Source of the DNA: a virus
Length of the DNA stretch: 64,000 nucleotides
Strand: one strand, 5' to 3'
UHGV virus genome: UHGV-1332848
Of the stretch, positions 7,564 to 24,681 are shown piece after piece (position 1 is the first letter of the stretch; each line of letters begins with the position of its first letter). Below the pieces are notes generated by a model. That model was not told the origin of the DNA, searched no databases, and was given only the letters and a program-made list of their open reading frames with translations. The position numbers were made by a program, and so were the translations under genes.

Positions 7564-8373
7564 TTGGAGAATATACAATTATATAACGGGGATTGTTTAG
7601 AAATTATGGATAAATTAATTGAAGAAGGAATTGTGGTTGATGCTATTATCACAGACATTCCTTATGGAACAACTTCGTGTTGTTGGGATAGTATAATACC
7701 ATTAGAAGATATGTGGAAAAAGATAGATAAGATAAGTAAAGACGAAGCTCCAATAGTATTATTTAGTAGTCAACCTTTTACTTCTCAGCTTATAAATTCT
7801 AATATTAAAAACTATAGAGAAGAAATCATATGGTTGAAAAATAAAGGTGCTAGTGGATTACAAGCTAAACAAAAGCATATCAAAGTACATGAAAATATAA
7901 TTGTTTTTAGTAAAAAAGGCAAATATACATATAATCCTCAAAAATGGGAAGTGAAAGAAAAGGAATTTTTAACTCAAAGAAAAACAATGAGTGTTTATGG
8001 TGAAACAAATAATATATATGGTAATTTAAAAAGAAACAGAAAAGCAGATGATGGAACTAGAAATCCTATATCAATTATACCATTTAGAGTGCCAATAACA
8101 CCTGCGAAAACAAAAAATTATGATAAGTCTATTGATATAAGAATCCACGAAACACAGAAGCCTATATTATTAATGGATTATTTGGTTAGAACTTATAGTA
8201 ATGAAGGGGCAACTATATTAGATTTTACAATGGGTAGTGGAACAACTGGTATATCAGTTTTAAATGTTGGTGGTGATAGAAAATTTATAGGTATAGAAAA
8301 AGACCATACATATTTTGATATAGCAAAAGAAAGAATTGAAAATACATATAATGAGAAGTTAAAAAGTGAATAA
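7564..8373 (+). CDS. DNA methyltransferase (N4-C/N6-A, DPPY motif, ParB-less 'DNA methylase N-4/N-6' family)
   Basis: 'DAIITDIPYG' DPPY motif IV near the N-terminus and C-terminal 'ILDFTMGSGTTG' motif I (beta-class order). RBS GAGGTG. Confidence 0.85.
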   Translation: MENIQLYNGDCLEIMDKLIEEGIVVDAIITDIPYGTTSCCWDSIIPLEDMWKKIDKISKDEAPIVLFSSQPFTSQLINSNIKNYREEIIWLKNKGASGLQAKQKHIKVHENIIVFSKKGKYTYNPQKWEVKEKEFLTQRKTMSVYGETNNIYGNLKRNRKADDGTRNPISIIPFRVPITPAKTKNYDKSIDIRIHETQKPILLMDYLVRTYSNEGATILDFTMGSGTTGISVLNVGGDRKFIGIEKDHTYFDIAKERIENTYNEKLKSE

Positions 8374-8620: not shown

Positions 8621-9196
8621 ATGAAATGTGTGAAATTACTAAAAGAAGATAATGTGGTTTTTATGTTAGACAATGAAGGCGGAAAGCTGAATTTAGAAGA
8701 TGATATAAAAACACAAAGATATGAGAAATCTCATAATGTAAATGTTAAAGATATGGTCAATAAATACTTAGGTGAAGAAGATAACGGGTTTGCAAAAATA
8801 ATTTGTGAAATAGAAAAGTTAGTCAAAAGATATAATATAGATTATTTCATGTACGGGGATGGCAAGAATGTAACTCAAGATAGTTTAGCATTAATATATA
8901 ATTTGAAGAACAGAAATTCTTATATAGATTGTACTTTAAAAGTTTTCTTTAGTATTGAGAAAACATCGCATCATAGCATTGATAGAATTAAATATATGAT
9001 TGATTTTTCGACTGGCTCAAAGGGAAACACTTATGGATTTGAATTCTTCAAGTATTTTACTTGTGATAATTTTTATGAAATTAAACATAAATTAGAATCA
9101 TATTTTTCTGGGAATGACGATAGGGCGAAGGATATAGAAGTTATAGAAGATTGCTTTAATAATGTAAAAAATAGAATAAATTATTATTACAGTTAA
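8621..9196 (+). CDS. hypothetical protein
   Basis: 191-aa ORF, RBS GGGGAG, downstream of strong promoter. Confidence 0.55.
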   Translation: MKCVKLLKEDNVVFMLDNEGGKLNLEDDIKTQRYEKSHNVNVKDMVNKYLGEEDNGFAKIICEIEKLVKRYNIDYFMYGDGKNVTQDSLALIYNLKNRNSYIDCTLKVFFSIEKTSHHSIDRIKYMIDFSTGSKGNTYGFEFFKYFTCDNFYEIKHKLESYFSGNDDRAKDIEVIEDCFNNVKNRINYYYS

Positions 9197-9245
9197 AAGG
9201 TGAAGTGGTAGATAAAATGATGTTTTTATAAAGTATAAAAAAGGG

Positions 9246-9452
9246 GTGGAGTGTGTGACATACAATACAATAGAAGAGTTAATGAATGATTTAAACTCTG
9301 TAGTGGGTAATCTAAATCATAAAGCTGAAAAGAAAGTTTTAGATGAATTTTACGAGGATAAAAGAAAAGAGCTGGAATTTTTAAAGGAACATATAAAAGA
9401 TATTGAAAGTGGAAAATATGAACCTAAAGATTTTGAAAGGTCTAATAGATAA
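9246..9452 (+). CDS. hypothetical protein
   Basis: 68-aa ORF, RBS GGGGTGGAG. Confidence 0.45.
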   Translation: MECVTYNTIEELMNDLNSVVGNLNHKAEKKVLDEFYEDKRKELEFLKEHIKDIESGKYEPKDFERSNR

Positions 9453-9483
9453 ATGATGTTATTTAATATGGAGGGGTGAGGTT

Positions 9484-9669
9484 TTGGGGAGAAGAAGAAA
9501 AGCAAAATGCGAGGGAAATATTTGTCCTCACTGCAATATTGAAATGGAATATGAGAATGGGGAAAATGGAGAACTTACAGAATTTTGGTGGGAATGCAAA
9601 GAATGTGGCAGAAGCTATGATGAAAACAGAAATGATATAACTGAATATGAATTTATGGATATTAAGTAG
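9484..9669 (+). CDS. Zn-ribbon protein (CPHC...CKECG)
   Basis: 61-aa ORF, two CxxC pairs, RBS GGAGGGGTGAGG. Confidence 0.5.
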   Translation: MGRRRKAKCEGNICPHCNIEMEYENGENGELTEFWWECKECGRSYDENRNDITEYEFMDIK

Positions 9670-11984: not shown

Positions 11985-12323
11985 ATGAATGAATTAAAAG
12001 CATTTTACATTACAGATGATAACGGGATTATAAAAGATCTCATAATAGGAACAAAAGAAGATAGACAAGTTGCCTTAACTACACTAGATTTTATAGAAAG
12101 TAGAAATGATAGTTGGCTCAAGCATCGAGTAGTTGAGATGCCAGCAGAAGGGATAATACATAAAGGATATATGAATATAGTAACTACTATAAAGATGAAT
12201 GGAATTCCAATTCGATGTATTCTTAATGGATTTCATAGCTTAATTGAGGCTATAGACAAGTATATGAGTATTGAAGATGGTTATAGACATTATAGTTATA
12301 TTAGCGAATACATAAAGTTGTAA
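11985..12323 (+). CDS. hypothetical protein
   Basis: 112-aa ORF, RBS GTGAGG. Confidence 0.5.
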   Translation: MNELKAFYITDDNGIIKDLIIGTKEDRQVALTTLDFIESRNDSWLKHRVVEMPAEGIIHKGYMNIVTTIKMNGIPIRCILNGFHSLIEAIDKYMSIEDGYRHYSYISEYIKL

Positions 12324-12354
12324 TAATTAATTAAAAATAGGTGGAAACACCTAC

Positions 12355-12554
12355 AATAAAGGTCGATTCAACGGTGATATGGTAAAAAGTATCACATACC
12401 TAAATCGAGAAGTATCAACCACCAAGTATTTTCTTGAAAGGGCTGAAAACTCTCGATAAACCAAAAGAGCGAATAGCTGGTAAATTCTTAGCGACAGTGG
12501 ATATTAGGGTGCTAAGACATATATACTATATCTAACAACAGTATATTTACTAGG
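12355..12554 (+). ncRNA. structured non-coding scaffold A (tracrRNA/omegaRNA-like), upstream of mini-array A
   Basis: Shares ordered blocks with scaffold B: AATAAAGGTYGATT (12355-12368), ACCTAAATCGAGAAG (12398-12412), AACTCTCGATAA (12448-12459), CAAGTATTTT..CTTG. ATCGAGA/TCTCGAT can pair. Contains anti-repeat ACATATATACTATATCTAAC (12517-12536). Confidence 0.5.
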
Positions 12555-12652
12555 GTTAGATATTAACATAGTATATATGTGAATACATGTAGCAACGGAT
12601 CATATAAAAAATGCTATCAAGTTAGATATTAACATGGTATATATATTGAATA
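12555..12652 (+). CRISPR. mini CRISPR-like array A: 2 x 31-nt repeats (GTTAGATATTAACATRGTATATAT...) with one 35-nt spacer, period 66
   Basis: Repeats at 12555-12585 and 12621-12652 with 2 mismatches. Unique spacer CATGTAGCAACGGATCATATAAAAAATGCTATCAA. Confidence 0.5.
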
Positions 12653-12711
12653 TTAGAATTGTGTATATAAATGAATTATTAACAAAATTAATTAAATAAA
12701 GAGGTATAAAA

Positions 12712-14061
12712 ATGGGGATTAAAATAAATAAATGTATAAAAGTAACTTTAAATAAATGCTTAAATATGGATATGAAAGAAATAAAAAGAATAATTAGAGA
12801 TTTTAACTATGATTCTTGTAGAGCGTCAAATAAAGCAATTAGAATGTGGTTATTCCATGCACAAGACATGATGGCAATGAAATTTATAGATAAAGATTTT
12901 AACATAAAAAAATATGAAAAAGAGAAGTATGGGAAAACGTATAGAAATGTAATTGAAAGAGAAATGAAATTATTAATGCCATTAGCGAATACTTCTAACG
13001 TAGGAACTTTACATCAGCAATTGGTTCAAAATGATTGGGGTAGAATAAAAAAGGATGTTTTAAATTACAAAGGACAAATAAGTAGATATAAATTAGATAC
13101 TCCTTATTTTATAAAAAATGATAATTACATATTAAGAAATCATAATGGATATTTTGTAGACATAGCATTTTTTAATAAAGAAGGATTAAAAAAATATGGA
13201 TATAAAGCTGGTCATAAATTTGAATTTCAAATAGATAAAATAGACAATAATAAAAAATCAGTTATAAATAAGTTAATAAATGGAGAATATAAACAAGGTT
13301 CATGTCAAATATATATTTCTAAAAAGGGAAAAATAGAATTAATAATAAGTTATGGATTTGAAAAAGAAATAGAAAATACTTTAAATCCTAATAAAATCCT
13401 TGGAGTTGATTTAGGCATAGTAAATACTGCAACAATGATAGTTTACGACTCTGAAATGGAGAAATATGATTATTTTAGTTGGAAGACAAATGTTATAGAT
13501 GGAGCAGAGTTAATTAAATTCAGACAGAAATATTATAATCTTAGAAAAGATATGAGTATAGCTAGTAAATATGCTGGTGATGGTAGAATTGGACATGGGT
13601 ATAAGACAAAAATGAAACCAGTAAATAAAGTTAGAGATAAGGTTGCTAATTTCTCAGATACTATAAATCACAAATATAGCAAATACATAGTTGAGTTTGC
13701 AGAAAAGAATAGTTGTGGAGTTATTCAAATGGAGGATTTATCAGGGGCTACTGCAAATGTGAAAGAGAAGTTTTTAAAAGAATGGAGTTATTATGACTTG
13801 CAAAAGAAAATAGAATACAAAGCTAAAGAAAAAGGAATCGCAGTAGTAAAAGTTAATCCTAAATATACCTCAAAAAGATGTAACAAGTGTGGGAATATAC
13901 ATAACGATAATAGAAATTGTAAAGATAATCAATCAAAATTCAAATGTGTTATTTGTGGACACGAAGATAACGCTGACATAAATGCTAGTAAAAATATTGC
14001 AATACCTAACATAGATAAAATAATCAATACATATATAAGTGATAATGAGAAAGTTGGTTAA
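12712..14061 (+). CDS. TnpB/Cas12f-like RNA-guided RuvC endonuclease (449 aa)
   Basis: RuvC-I 'ILGVDLGIVNTATM', RuvC-II 'GVIQMEDLSG', Zn finger 'CNKCGN...CVICGH', RuvC-III 'NADINASKNIA'. RBS AAAGAGG. No adjacent TnpA. Confidence 0.85.
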   Translation: MGIKINKCIKVTLNKCLNMDMKEIKRIIRDFNYDSCRASNKAIRMWLFHAQDMMAMKFIDKDFNIKKYEKEKYGKTYRNVIEREMKLLMPLANTSNVGTLHQQLVQNDWGRIKKDVLNYKGQISRYKLDTPYFIKNDNYILRNHNGYFVDIAFFNKEGLKKYGYKAGHKFEFQIDKIDNNKKSVINKLINGEYKQGSCQIYISKKGKIELIISYGFEKEIENTLNPNKILGVDLGIVNTATMIVYDSEMEKYDYFSWKTNVIDGAELIKFRQKYYNLRKDMSIASKYAGDGRIGHGYKTKMKPVNKVRDKVANFSDTINHKYSKYIVEFAEKNSCGVIQMEDLSGATANVKEKFLKEWSYYDLQKKIEYKAKEKGIAVVKVNPKYTSKRCNKCGNIHNDNRNCKDNQSKFKCVICGHEDNADINASKNIAIPNIDKIINTYISDNEKVG

Positions 14062-14074
14062 TTCCAACTTTAAA

Positions 14075-14283
14075 ATAAAGGTTGATTTACCAACCTAAAT
14101 CGAGAAGCAATATAAATAAAATGGCTTATGTGCTATGATTGGAGATATTAACTCTCGATAATGCCTTCAAGTATTTTAGCTTGGGAAAAGTGAAAGTTGG
14201 AGAGCTGATAAAGTCAGCGAGGTTGCTTTCTGATACATCTTATTGGACTTATTTATATATGGTTAAATGGCTATTTTAAAATG
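14075..14283 (+). ncRNA. structured non-coding scaffold B (tracrRNA/omegaRNA-like) beginning 14 nt after the TnpB-like stop
   Basis: Blocks AATAAAGGTTGATT (14075-14088), ACCTAAATCGAGAAG (14093-14107), AACTCTCGATAA (14150-14161), CAAGTATTTTAGCTTG. Has 8-9 nt complementarity (GATACATCT, 14223-14231) to the repeat. Confidence 0.5.
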
Positions 14284-14510
14284 GTTTGATATTAACATGA
14301 GATGTATTTAAATTTATTAATATCTAATTGTTTAGTAACTTTTGATATGTTTGATATTAACATGAGATGTATTTAAATTACATTGGTAAAAACTCTTTAT
14401 AATAGAAGTCTATGTTTGATATTAACATGAGATGTATTTAAATTAATCTCCACAGTATTCGTTTAAATCTAAATTGTAGCTTGATATTAACATAAGATGT
14501 GTTCGAATTG
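14284..14510 (+). CRISPR. mini CRISPR-like array B: 4 repeats (GTTTGATATTAACATGAGATGTATTTAAATT), 3 unique spacers (~34 nt), period exactly 65; terminal repeat degenerate
   Basis: Repeat starts 14284, 14349, 14414, 14479. Last repeat TTGATATTAACATAAGATGTGTTCGAATTG is mutated. Spacers are unrelated to each other. Confidence 0.6.
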
Positions 14511-14523
14511 AGTTGAATATGCA

Positions 14524-14570
14524 ATAATTAATTAAAAACTATTGAGAAACATAGAAATATATGGTAATAT
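14524..14570 (+). promoter_or_regulatory. AATAATTAATTAAAAA motif + TTGAGA-17-TAATAT promoter
   Basis: TTGAGA 14542-14547, TAATAT 14565-14570. Immediately after array B. Confidence 0.55.
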
Positions 14571-14777
14571 AAAAGAGTGGATAAATTCTACAAATAAAAT
14601 CGTACTAGATTAAATTTACATATATAAAAATAGTTAATTAAAAGGAGGTGGAATATATAAATAAAATTAAAATTTTCTTATATGGACTAATGATAAGAGT
14701 AGACGTCAAATTCAGACTGTACCACAAATGGAGTGAATTTAAAAAATGGGTTGATGTAAAAATGGGTTGATGTAAAA

Positions 14778-14942
14778 ATGGGTTGCAGGGATAAAACTGG
14801 AAATATCATAAAATGTAGGTATTGTAGGTCTAAAAACTTAGATTGTTACGATAACATAATTGATTCTGGATGGTGTTCTATTATTGAAAAGATGGTAGGA
14901 TGCAAACAATGTGGAAAAGATTTGGGGTATAAAAATAATTAA
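14778..14942 (+). CDS. small Cys-rich Zn-ribbon-like protein
   Basis: 54-aa ORF with 6 Cys including CxxC pairs. Start created by third copy of a 16-bp tandem repeat (ATGGGTTGATGTAAAA x2.5). Confidence 0.3.
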   Translation: MGCRDKTGNIIKCRYCRSKNLDCYDNIIDSGWCSIIEKMVGCKQCGKDLGYKNN

Positions 14943-22664: not shown

Positions 22665-23723
22665 GTGTTATCTAAAGAAATGATAAAAGAATACATAATT
22701 GTTAATGAAAAAGTAGAAGAAATTTTAAAAGAATTAAATTGTAAAGGTGTAAAACCACATGATAACACAAGATATTACACAGGTGGTTTTCCTGATAGTG
22801 ATGGGAATACTAGCTTTGCTTTATTCTCAGACAGTCTTTATGTAGATAGCTATACAAGAAATATTAAAGATCAATATGGTAATTCTGATATATTCAGTTT
22901 GGTAATGTTTATTAAAGATATGTATTTTAGTAACGCTTTAAATTGGATATGTCAAATATTAGGTTTAGATTACTATGATGACTCTACAGAAGAGATACCA
23001 TTAAGTTTACAGTTAACTAATCTAATTTTTGATATGAACAATGGGTTAGATGAAAATGAAGAAAATGAAATGTTAAAACCTATAAATGAGAATATATTAA
23101 AAACTTACTACAAGGGTGGCAATGATTTATTTATAAATGATGGGGTTAGTTTAGCCACACAAAGAGAATTTGAAATAGGTTTTGATTTAGATAGTGGAAG
23201 AATAACAATACCAATAAGAGATGAATTAGGAACTTTGGTTGGAGTAAAAGGTAGACTGTTTAATAAAAGTGATATAGGAGAGAAATACATATATTTAGAA
23301 AGATGTTCAAAATCTAAAATACTTTATGGATTATATAAAACAATTGAATATATAAGGCAAAAAGGTATATGTATAGTAGTTGAGTCTGAAAAAAGTGTTT
23401 TAGTTTTATGGGAGCAAGGAATTAGAAATGTAGTTGCAATAGGGGGGCATTCGCTTTCTAAAATTCAAGTTGAAAAGATAACTAGGTTAGGAGTAAAAGA
23501 GGTAGTTCTTTGTTATGACTCAGACGTTGCAAGACTTGAAGATGGCAAGATAGACAAAAAAGAGTATTTAGAGGAAGCAAATAAGTTTATAGAAGAAGTT
23601 AAGGTTTCAGCTATGGTTGATATAAAAGGAGATATATTAAAAGAAAAAGAATCGCCAGTGGATAGATTTGAAAATTTCATAAAAATGTATGATGAAAGGA
23701 AGGTTTTACAGGTTGGTAAATAA
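22665..23723 (+). CDS. DNA primase (Toprim domain)
   Basis: 'IVVESEKSVLVLWEQG' (Toprim Glu) and 'VVLCYDSDVA' (DxD). Confidence 0.65.
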   Translation: MLSKEMIKEYIIVNEKVEEILKELNCKGVKPHDNTRYYTGGFPDSDGNTSFALFSDSLYVDSYTRNIKDQYGNSDIFSLVMFIKDMYFSNALNWICQILGLDYYDDSTEEIPLSLQLTNLIFDMNNGLDENEENEMLKPINENILKTYYKGGNDLFINDGVSLATQREFEIGFDLDSGRITIPIRDELGTLVGVKGRLFNKSDIGEKYIYLERCSKSKILYGLYKTIEYIRQKGICIVVESEKSVLVLWEQGIRNVVAIGGHSLSKIQVEKITRLGVKEVVLCYDSDVARLEDGKIDKKEYLEEANKFIEEVKVSAMVDIKGDILKEKESPVDRFENFIKMYDERKVLQVGK

Positions 23724-24681
23724 GCTTATAGAGGTAAATAAAGATTGTAAAAAGATAAAAGTTAATATAAATGAGTTACCTATAAAAGATAAATTAAGTT
23801 ATTCAAGATTAGATTGTTTTAAAAGTTGTGAATATAAATATAAATTGAAATACATAAATAAGAATTATACAAATGATTCAAGCTTAGCATTAAGGATAGG
23901 TACTATACTCCATTTAGGATTAGAATATAAGTATTTAAAAAAATATAAAAATGAAGAAATATTGGATTTAATTTATAAGGGTTGTATTGAAGAAGGAGAA
24001 GAAGTTATAGGATTAGATAAACTAAAAGATGAATATCCTTTTGAATGGGAAGAAGAAGATAAATTTGGGAGAACATATGATGAAAAAATAGAACTTTATA
24101 AATATAGGCTGTTAGAGGACATAGAAAAGGATTGGGAATGCATAGGTTGTGAAGTTCCATTTGATATTTTATTTGAAAATAAAGCTATAATACATGGATT
24201 TATAGATAGAGTAGATAGACACAAAATTACAGCAGACATAAGAGTTGTTGACTATAAAAGTTCAAAAAAGCCTTATGATAAAAAAGAATTAGCCACTCCT
24301 TTACAGATGTATGTTTATGCCTTAGCTTGTAAAGAAATGTATGGTAAATTTCCTAGTAAGTTTATATATGATATGATTTTAATAGGAGAAAAACAAGAAG
24401 CGATGACTAAAGGTTGGGAGAAAAGAGGATATACAGCTCTTAGTAAATTGATAAACAACTTAATCGTACATAATGAAAATAACAATATTAATATGATACC
24501 TAAACCATCGCCACTTTGCCATTGGTGTAGTTATAGTGAAACTAATCCTAATGCTACAAATGGTAAAGGGCTTTGCGAATACAATCTCTTGTGGACACCT
24601 GATAATAAAGTTTGGAAACAGAATAAAGAGTGGATTGAGGTAGTTGAGGATAATGATGGTTGGGGAGATGAATGGGAATAA
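23689..24681 (+). CDS. PD-(D/E)XK nuclease with C-terminal Cys cluster (Cas4/RecB-like exonuclease, DUF2800-type)
   Basis: 'GFIDRVDR...VVDYKSSKK' (D..D/EXK). C-terminal 'CHWCSY...C' Fe-S/Zn cluster as in Cas4/AddB. Confidence 0.6.
   Translation: MMKGRFYRLVNKLIEVNKDCKKIKVNINELPIKDKLSYSRLDCFKSCEYKYKLKYINKNYTNDSSLALRIGTILHLGLEYKYLKKYKNEEILDLIYKGCIEEGEEVIGLDKLKDEYPFEWEEEDKFGRTYDEKIELYKYRLLEDIEKDWECIGCEVPFDILFENKAIIHGFIDRVDRHKITADIRVVDYKSSKKPYDKKELATPLQMYVYALACKEMYGKFPSKFIYDMILIGEKQEAMTKGWEKRGYTALSKLINNLIVHNENNNINMIPKPSPLCHWCSYSETNPNATNGKGLCEYNLLWTPDNKVWKQNKEWIEVVEDNDGWGDEWE

Follow-up and report, generated by a model that had tools for sequence, protein, structure and literature searches.

A phage-borne cas12f1 locus with two tracrRNA-like modules: a probable type V-F1 CRISPR-Cas system linked to clostridial type I-B repeats

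Introduction

Why would a single phage-borne nuclease gene be flanked on both sides by a structured scaffold and a short repeat-spacer array, and what would two such units serve? The question is raised by a cassette in the UHGV virus genome UHGV-1332848, of which one stretch of 64,000 nucleotides (nt), hereafter the window, was analyzed. An initial annotation, made from the sequence alone, had described a TnpB/Cas12f-like nuclease with an array on either side. In all likelihood, the locus is a phage-encoded type V-F1 CRISPR-Cas system with two guide-RNA modules, probably directed against competing phages. The upstream module is referred to here as class B and the downstream module as class A, and each contains a scaffold resembling a trans-activating CRISPR RNA (tracrRNA). 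The cassette lies entirely on the plus strand, in the order scaffold B, array B, cas12f1, scaffold A, leader, array A:

12337..12536, + strand: class B tracrRNA-like scaffold (alignment and covariation over 15 scaffolds)
12555..12650, + strand: class B mini-array, 2 repeats, period 66 (repeat search)
12712..14061, + strand: cas12f1 (type V-F1, former V-U3), 449 amino acids (PADLOC, PDB, Pfam, and NCBIfam matches)
14074..14243, + strand: class A tracrRNA-like scaffold (alignment and covariation over 15 scaffolds)
14244..14283, + strand: class A leader, ending in the leader-proximal motif AATGGCTATTTTAAAATG
14284..14508, + strand: class A array, 4 repeats of 30 nt, exact period 65 (repeat search)

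The effector protein

The open reading frame (ORF) at 12712-14061 encodes a 449-amino acid (aa) protein with the RuvC-I/II/Zn-finger/RuvC-III layout initially described, and all of the motifs named at the time were found: GVDLG at residue 231, QMEDL at 339, CNKC at 390, CVIC at 412, and NADINAS at 420. The RuvC domain is tri-split, with the CxxC..CxxC zinc ribbon situated between RuvC-II and RuvC-III. The catalytic residues D233/E341/D422 and the zinc ribbon cysteines C390/C393 and C412/C415 are intact and align with the same residues of AsCas12f; the intact catalytic residues rule out a nuclease-dead effector.

According to profile searches, the protein matches the PADLOC Cas12u3 model with 401.5 bits (E 1.3e-120; residues 5-440 against profile positions 3-394 of 398) and the PADLOC type V-F Cas12f profile PDLC01699 with 386.4 bits over its full length. 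The best matches in the PDB are the AsCas12f chains 8J12, 8J1J, 7WJU, and 8DZJ (E 2.6e-73; residues 9-439 against 15-428), followed by the 433-aa Cas12f chain 9NZQ (E 3e-70), which, in view of its length and of the structures described in 10.1101/2025.08.14.670346, is taken to be OsCas12f. Progressively weaker matches are CnCas12f, Un1Cas12f, Cas12g, LaTranC, and Cas-phi, and no IS-type TnpB structure, ISDra2-type included, is found among the PDB matches at E<0.01. The Pfam families Cas12f1-like_TNB and OrfB_IS605 and the NCBIfam model guided_TnpB (162.6 bits) place the protein in the TnpB/Cas12f superfamily only; the NCBIfam IS200_TnpB model gives 61 bits against a cut-off of 425. As judged from these profile and structure matches, which were the searches first proposed for the locus, the protein is a Cas12f1 (V-F1/V-U3) and does not group with ordinary IS605 TnpB.

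The view of the protein as a hypercompact type V effector therefore stands, but its novelty was overstated, as the subtype has been named and biochemically characterized. Cas12f1/V-U3 proteins of 422-497 aa are known from Clostridia and Bacilli, lack adaptation genes, and have been shown to perform cleavage of double-stranded DNA (dsDNA) that depends on a protospacer-adjacent motif (PAM) (PMC7229846); the subtype sits near the TnpB root (PMC10691335). Homologs of the effector amount to 1,270 proteins in metagenomes, where the public annotation is "transposase." A protein-pattern scan for the effector in GTDB genomes returned nothing.

The two guide-RNA modules

The scaffold motifs co-occur at two places alone within the 64 kb. 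The upstream scaffold and 2-repeat array of period 66 are present as first described (12355 on; 12555 and 12621), and the scaffold is paralogous to the downstream one, with which it has in common the motifs AATAAAGGTYGATT, CTAAATCGAG, and CTCGATAA. The class B scaffold opens with a 5' hairpin (12337-12354); its conserved core from 12355 reads AATAAAGGTCGATT...CCTAAATCGAG...CTCGATAA and is followed by a stem-loop (TCTTAGC..GCTAAGA). Its signature is ..GGTCGATTCAACG.., and its anti-repeat is composed of ACATATATACTAT (12517-12529) and ATCTAAC (12530-12536). In the class B array, repeat 1 (GTTAGATATTAACATAGTATATATGTGAAT, 12555-12584) and the terminal repeat 2 (12621-12650, 3 substitutions) enclose a spacer of 36 nt (12585-12620). 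The loop of stem 1 in this scaffold also carries a 24-nt insertion, GGTGATATGGTAAAAAGTATCACA (12373-12396), with the inverted ends GTGATA/TATCAC, which is absent from the other 14 scaffolds.

A conserved non-coding scaffold does follow the stop codon of the gene, but it begins at 14074, 12 nt past the stop rather than the 14 nt originally given. This class A scaffold contains AATAAAGGTTGATTTACCAACCTAAATCGAG ... CTCGATAATGCC, a hairpin (CAAG..CTTG), and a long stem (GAAAG..CTTTC), and has the signature ..GGTTGATTTACCAACC..; its anti-repeat, GATACATCTTAT (14232-14243), begins GATACATCT.. Neither motif nor spacing points to a promoter of its own, and since it starts 12 nt after the stop codon, the class A scaffold is probably co-transcribed with cas12f. 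The leader motif AATGGCTATTTTAAAATG is conserved in related Cas12f loci, and it also precedes a scaffold-less array on the Clostridium taeniosporum plasmid pCt3. Three class A repeats (GTTTGATATTAACATGAGATGTATTTAAAT) begin at 14284, 14349, and 14414, and the terminal repeat at 14479 is degenerate with 5 substitutions; the spacers are 35 nt each (14314-14348, 14379-14413, and 14444-14478). The four repeats, the period of 65, and the degenerate last repeat thus agree with the initial annotation, whose 31-nt repeats and 34-nt spacers are replaced by a register of 30-nt repeats and 35-36-nt spacers in both arrays, because the 31st base varies in relatives and matches the protospacer in 3 of 3 targets. 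The intact class A repeats (14286-14314, 14351-14379, and 14416-14444) also contain a sigma-70-like TTGATA-17 nt-TAAATT, a match at the level of the consensus only.

For the analysis of RNA structure, 15 distinct scaffolds from related loci, each with its first repeat, were aligned and a consensus fold was computed by RNAalifold. The consensus contains a stem 1 of 6 bp, a long-range stem (ATCGAG/CTCGAT), and a helix in which the scaffold's 3' end pairs with the repeat's 3' half; single-sequence folding adds two hairpins, which occupy the same places in 15 of 15 scaffolds with different bases. Overall, 96.3% of cells pair and compensatory changes are present in 11 of 20 pairs, including 6 of the 8 pairs of the anti-repeat:repeat helix. 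None of 500 shuffles reaches any of the five measures, and slid partners pair at 25-47%. Compared with the AsCas12f single guide RNA (sgRNA) published in 10.1101/2022.10.20.513037, the helices are colinear and the junction CGAGAAGTG...CTCGGTAA is found in both. As pairing and compensatory changes extend to the anti-repeat:repeat helix, the scaffolds of ~180-200 nt are predicted to be tracrRNA genes.

Orthogonality and spread of the modules

The predicted duplexes separate the two modules of the window. Cognate pairing amounts to -15.1 kcal/mol in class B and -13.0 kcal/mol in class A, whereas the class B anti-repeat with the class A repeat gives -4.0 kcal/mol and the class A anti-repeat with the class B repeat -3.1 kcal/mol. 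Across the window, L003, and L007, two of the related loci, cognate duplexes range from -10 to -15 kcal/mol and non-cognate ones from -3 to -9 kcal/mol; the upstream module of L023 is intermediate, and its separation is less clean. Classes A and B have diverged in step, in repeat and anti-repeat alike, and because the two diverged together, cross-pairing is not expected; the modules are orthogonal in predicted pairing. The protein-binding core of the scaffold is kept in both, and therefore one effector could be loaded from either.

A scaffold followed by an array, always on the strand of the gene, was found beside homologs of the gene in 11 additional, distinct types of locus (L001, L003, L006-L008, L011, L016, L020, L023, L025, and L027). 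The module is located upstream only in L001, L008/9, L011-15, and L025/26, downstream only in L006, L016/17, L020-22, and L027/28, and on both sides in the window, L003-5, L007, and L023/24. Two scaffold/array units for one effector, considered unusual at the outset, are thus real, and the dual layout with class B upstream and class A downstream recurs in three further phage lineages, at effector identities of 87% (L003-5), 72% (L007), and 71% (L023/24). Relatives at 80-84% effector identity have class A alone, and one at 64% has a class B-like module alone; modules are therefore gained and lost, yet the pair recurs. No adaptation genes adjoin any of the related loci that were fetched. A pattern scan of IMG/VR for the class B scaffold returned nothing, and in the GTDB scaffold scan C. 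paraputrificum was the sole match.

Two more distant homologs were noted. The C. perfringens phage-plasmid pZ1323HCP0072-3 (L043, 2923-4251) encodes a 46%-identical homolog surrounded by genes for capsid and tail, and no repeat array could be detected on it; a CRISPR link is therefore missing in some relatives within the same host genus. In Bacillus phage Mgbh1 (L044, NC_041879.1, 2001-3302), gp53 is 37% identical to the window protein over the full length and is preceded by two 37-nt repeats 66 bp apart (1807-1909), which looks like an unrecognized Cas12f-like mini-CRISPR in a cultured phage. As such homologs in cultured phages are annotated only as "transposase," even where, as with gp53, they have a mini-array of their own, systems of this kind appear to be under-recognized.

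Spacers, targets, and array turnover

Spacer content differs between closely related loci. L008 and L009 encode an identical effector and have entirely different spacers. Five metagenome contigs, chromosomal in appearance and with Spo0A nearby in one of them (L012), encode one identical 448-aa effector (L011-L015; P0049, 174 index blocks) with 5-11 spacers upstream of the gene. The spacers farthest from the scaffold are shared among these contigs, and the scaffold-proximal ones differ and are sample-specific; a shared trailer with differing scaffold-proximal spacers is the signature of leader-end acquisition. The arrays are alive, with spacer turnover and polarized growth in relatives, and these five loci would form a good natural data set for the analysis of PAM and adaptation. 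A regulatory mini-array, in which a crRNA-like (CRISPR RNA-like) molecule would act as an autorepressor, was rejected, as the class B spacers are entirely different between the window, L003, and L007.

Direct searches for targets were nearly empty. The BLAST search of the four window spacers, which had been suggested at the outset, gave no match in phages and a single weak match in plasmids (E 0.7), which turned out to be informative. For 55 spacers of relatives, BLAST against phages and plasmids returned nothing, and IMG/VR scans with exact or partly degenerate spacers were likewise empty; with <=6 mismatches allowed, none of the spacers has a match in the window itself. A 28/34 match between L031 and a spacer of L014, which lacks a TCA flank, was set aside as probably due to chance.

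The weak plasmid match aligns the class B spacer at 30/35 with the large-terminase gene of a C. perfringens phage-like plasmid, in frame and with 3 of 5 mismatches at third codon positions. The spacer encodes HVATDHIKNAI, a peptide of the large terminase (TerL) of PhiS63-like Clostridium phages. A codon-degenerate pattern for this peptide was searched in IMG/VR, and the same approach was applied to class A spacer 2. The pattern is present in 11 viral contigs, of which 10 are PhiS63-like and 28-34 kb long and one is a 10-kb fragment; the closest protospacers, on two contigs, match at 31/35 with differences at synonymous third positions only and have the flank AATCA. Class A spacer 2 matches at 31/35 (30-nt register) an early-gene ORF beside an XRE-type repressor on a 46-kb viral contig, with 4 of 4 mismatches synonymous. 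An exact scan of JGI metagenomes found class A spacer 3 at 35/35 on the minus strand of a phage-like contig (L042, 531-565), inside a GIY-YIG gene 0.9 kb 5' of a small-terminase gene. Three of the four window spacers therefore match other phages, in line with the use of the arrays against competing elements that had been proposed. The protospacer flanks AATCA, CATCA, and TATCA have 5'-ATCA in common in 3 of 3 cases, on the side where a PAM would be expected in a type V as well as in a type I system; the PAM predicted from them is 5'-(A)TCA.

Relationship to clostridial type I-B arrays

The class A repeat belongs to the 30-nt clostridial type I-B family GTTGAAC(A/C)TTAACATGAGATGTATTTAAAT. It matches the Rfam family CRISPR-DR3 with 36.8 bits, below the gathering score of 41, and agrees at 27/30 positions with the DR3 consensus (on the other strand, GTTGAACATTAACATGAGATGTATTTAAAT). 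Over its last 20 nt, it does not differ from the type I-B repeat of C. autoethanogenum (PMC4022347) or from that found in C. chauvoei (PMC5465433). It also agrees at 27/30 positions with a repeat of the C. botulinum plasmid p2BKT015925 located 3 kb from cas3, in a CRISPR locus described as type I-B (PMC8473940). The class B repeat is I-B-like in its 5' half only and lacks the I-B 3' handle (..ATGTGAAT vs. ..ATTTAAAT), yet a matching anti-repeat is kept. On C. taeniosporum pCt3 (L045, NZ_CP017256.2), an array of at least 9 repeats (GTTTAACCTTAACATGAGATGTATTTAAAT) lies at 9019-9580, and the plasmid contains 27 repeat matches; in repeat family and in the 18 leader-proximal bases (AATGGCTATTTTACTATG), this array agrees with the class A modules, but it has no Cas12f scaffold.

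Spacers and flanks follow the same pattern. TCA is reported as a pervasive clostridial I-B PAM, which was verified in vivo for C. autoethanogenum and agrees with the YCN consensus of Clostridioides difficile (PMC4022347, PMC4860712, PMC10328091). The window spacer lengths (35 nt in class A, 36 nt in class B) and the TCA flank in 3 of 3 protospacers fit the clostridial I-B ranges of 35-38-nt spacers and 5'-TCA/YCN. The class A anti-repeat of the window is predicted to pair with genuine clostridial I-B repeats at -13.0 to -13.2 kcal/mol, as with its own repeat; across the window, L003, and L007, class A anti-repeats reach -13 to -14 kcal/mol with I-B repeats and class B anti-repeats -3 to -5 kcal/mol. 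The simplest reading of these sequences is that arrays of type I-B were taken over by this Cas12f1 lineage, which evolved a tracrRNA capable of reading them and would need a co-resident I-B adaptation module for new spacers.

Proposed mechanism and competing explanations

In the proposed mechanism, each module would be transcribed as a tracrRNA gene followed by a short CRISPR array on the same strand, and the anti-repeat, at the 3' end of the tracrRNA, would pair with its own repeat over that repeat's 3' half. A Cas12f dimer would then bind the processed tracrRNA:crRNA pair, as AsCas12f does, and the complex would cut spacer-matching dsDNA with a 5' PAM, predicted to be (A)TCA. One effector would be loaded from either of the non-cross-pairing modules. 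The targets would be genes of other Clostridium phages, namely that for a large terminase, an early gene adjoining a repressor, and a GIY-YIG gene with a small terminase next to it, and the likely role is the elimination of competing or resident (pro)phages during infection. As the locus is without adaptation genes and has an I-B repeat, 35-37-nt spacers, and a TCA PAM, new spacers would most likely be inserted in trans by the host type I-B Cas1-Cas2-Cas4.

Several points weigh against this explanation. The PAM prediction rests on three sites, and the PAMs of characterized relatives are T-rich or C-rich (PMC7229846). Two of the three protospacers are 31/35 matches with synonymous mismatches and not the exact target; mismatches of this kind suggest that the actual target is a related phage outside the databases. 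Class A spacer 1 (14314-14348) matched no target and is 54% identical to the leader at 14249-14283, for which reason it may have arisen by duplication of leader and repeat instead of by acquisition; within it also lies TTAATATCTAA, which is the beginning of the class B repeat in reverse complement. A C. perfringens-like host is indicated by the targets alone. Finally, sequence-only profile similarity to the AsCas12f sgRNA is weak (4.8 bits), though this sgRNA ranks first of 2,002 sequences and above all 2,000 shuffles.

A wider version of the type V-F1 explanation, which is put forward tentatively and may well not hold, is that the phage Cas12f1 is adapted to read type I-B arrays: the host Cas1-Cas2-Cas4 would fill the phage arrays, the effector would also load host I-B guides, and class B would provide insulated, private guides. 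If true, host adaptation would explain the TCA PAM, the 35-37-nt spacers, and the polarized growth, and the phage would borrow or disturb host immune memory through the I-B guides of its host. It would then represent a virus-encoded class 2 effector acting as an add-on to a class 1 system, with the two tracrRNAs as adaptors.

It is improbable, though worth setting out, that class A serves in counter-defense, with a tracrRNA that pairs with the repeats of host I-B pre-crRNA and diverts guides or disturbs their maturation, and with class B again supplying private guides. The pairing of class A, and not class B, anti-repeats with genuine I-B repeats is consistent with such a role, the retention of two orthogonal modules across 71-87% protein identity calls for an explanation, and repeat-mimicking RNA anti-CRISPRs have been described (PMC10651486). 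However, the role is drawn from complementarity alone, and class A arrays hold phage-targeting spacers of their own, which makes them at least a normal guide source. Moreover, class A is the sole module of many loci, among them chromosomal ones with 9-12 spacers, and the intermediate upstream module of L023 is not orthogonal.

Slightly less probable still is the explanation that the phage arrays are host-type I-B mini-arrays serving the host Cascade-Cas3, and that the TnpB-like neighbor is unrelated. The clostridial I-B identity of the class A repeat (27/30 to DR3, with the last 20 nt as published), the I-B-like spacer length and TCA PAM, and the leader-repeat junction that pCt3 carries with no Cas12f scaffold would all be expected. 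On the other hand, the array of every locus is preceded by a scaffold whose anti-repeat co-varies with the repeat (the 6 of 8 compensatory pairs), which has no role in type I; scaffold, array, and effector co-travel through more than 10 loci in several genomic contexts; and the class B repeat has lost the I-B handle and kept its anti-repeat. Class A crRNAs may nonetheless be used by both the Cas12f and the I-B systems.

A decaying IS200/IS605 insertion sequence (IS) element, with a TnpB, an omega-RNA scaffold, and "arrays" formed by partial right-end duplications, would account for the OrfB_IS605 and guided_TnpB matches, the public "transposase" label, and the scaffolds that begin right past the stop codon in some loci, but it is effectively refuted by the better Cas12f1/V-U3 profile and structure matches, the single copy in 64 kb, the position of modules upstream of the gene, and unique spacers, which vary among loci encoding identical proteins, are gained at one end, and have their matches in foreign phage genes flanked by a constant PAM. 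Duplicated IS ends do not account for the spacers. Neither IS ends nor a TnpA were found, the latter as the initial annotation had stated; the flanking ORFs match no Pfam, PHROG, or PADLOC family. Type V-F1 CRISPR-Cas thus remains the favored explanation of the locus.

Genome context

The phage context initially described for the locus is borne out by the window, which is AT-rich (~27% G+C), has nearly all genes on the same strand, and encodes a family-A/B-type DNA polymerase (phrog_405, 940 bits), an exonuclease V/Dda-like helicase, a DnaB-like helicase, and NrdD. The exact effector protein is recorded on a single contig (ENA ERZ807474 NODE_1, 130,278 bp, 211x coverage), and a near-identity search of the INPHARED phage collection with the 3.2-kb region found no similar phage; the cas12f locus is therefore placed in a large uncultured phage genome, amid small ORFs 5' of the replication genes.

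Also in agreement with the initial annotation, no adaptation genes were found: Cas1, Cas2, and Cas6 have no PADLOC match among all ORFs of window positions 1-24.7 kb, and cas6-cas8b-cas7-cas5-cas3 genes are absent from the same interval. Directly 5' of the DNA polymerase gene, at 23689-24681, lies a 330-aa PD-(D/E)XK nuclease (Pfam PDDEXK_1, 90.5 bits) with a weak Cas4 match (27.8 bits). It is probably a replication/recombination exonuclease, and is of note since type I-B adaptation uses Cas4.

The cassette is bracketed exactly by two copies of a 15-mer:

12322..12336, + strand: intergenic motif of the phage, AATAATTAATTAAAA, immediately 5' of the upstream module; the cassette ends with another copy at 14523-14537

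With <=1 mismatch, this motif has 33 copies in the window against 0.8 expected, every one of them strand-matched to the local genes (for instance, 1342, 8484, 11889, 12322, 14523, 14934, 17768, 24690, 39630, and 52824, with minus-strand copies beyond 58 kb). The copies inspected (14629 and 14934) lie a few bases 5' of a ribosome-binding site. From this context, the motif is possibly a phage-specific promoter or regulatory element.

Other features of the surroundings include a perfect 16-nt tandem repeat, AAAAATGGGTTGATGT (14742-14785, 2.8 copies), which overlaps the start of a 54-aa ORF with paired-cysteine motifs just 3' of the cassette (14778-14942). An orphan type II DNA methyltransferase in the early region (7564-8373; PADLOC MTase_II, 201 bits) likely has an anti-restriction role. 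An upstream 112-aa ORF was considered as an associated gene and rejected as synteny only, as it is kept in L007 (54% identity) and not in L003.

Relation to known systems

The closest characterized systems are those of AsCas12f and OsCas12f, which have full-length homology to the window protein (422-433 vs. 449 aa), the same catalytic and zinc-ribbon motifs, and, in AsCas12f, the same order of guide scaffold helices with the common junction given above. They likewise consist of an effector, a tracrRNA, and a short array without adaptation genes (PMC7229846); effector, tracrRNA-dependence, short arrays, and missing adaptation genes are standard for V-F1/V-U3 (PMC7229846, PMC10691335). In contrast, the system described here is phage-borne, has two orthogonal modules instead of one, can have its module upstream, and uses I-B-type 30-mer repeats. 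Its predicted PAM, (A)TCA, also differs from that of AsCas12f, which is NTTR. CnCas12f1 (PDB 8HR5) is much more distant, matching over the C-terminal half only (E 8e-30).

[quoted passage not shown] Those loci are similar in being miniature Cas12f-like genes on clostridial mobile elements, beside CRISPR arrays and with no adaptation genes of their own, and the BoNT phage locus adjoins partial type I-B loci; they differ in that a text search of that source for the word tracrRNA found none (PMC8473940).

Like Cas12f here, Cas12j (Cas-phi) and Cas12l (Cas-lambda) are type V proteins that phages carry as single effectors, together with small arrays but without an adaptation module, and are thought to target competitors. 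They are proteins of ~700-800 aa that need no tracrRNA. They belong to other Cas12 families, Cas-phi matching the zinc-ribbon region only (E 8e-5), whereas the system here is predicted to depend on a tracrRNA. Virus-borne mini-CRISPR arrays in interviral conflict are comparable in their short arrays, host-type repeats, spacers against related viruses, and host-supplied adaptation (PMC6858448). Such arrays use host effectors only, whereas the present phage brings its own effector and a tracrRNA that would read a host-type repeat. Prophages of Clostridioides difficile carry type I-B arrays.

IS200/IS605 TnpB and TranC (PDB 9JFO) have the RuvC/zinc-ribbon core in common with the window protein, and the downstream scaffold starts near the stop codon as an omega-RNA does; the similarity of LaTranC to the window protein is weak (E 9e-6). 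Unlike IS200/IS605 TnpB, the locus has no transposase and no ends, the guide is split into tracrRNA and crRNA, and there is a true array with spacer turnover.

Implications

In the literature searched, no description was found of two orthogonal tracrRNA/array modules around one cas12f or of arrays upstream of cas12f, Cas12 arrays being almost always downstream (PMC10691335), and none of a full I-B "grammar" (repeat, spacer length, and PAM) together with identified phage targets. The locus adds a case of phage-versus-phage CRISPR in Clostridium, with identified targets (terminase and early region) and a predicted PAM. As a natural case of one miniature Cas12f with two tracrRNA/crRNA pairs predicted not to cross-react, it would be useful for multiplexed or orthogonal guides with a 449-aa nuclease. 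For the V-U3-type family as a whole, it suggests how a system without adaptation genes can stay adaptive, by using the repeat, spacer size, and PAM of a co-resident I-B system, and the long-standing question of how such systems acquire their spacers becomes testable.

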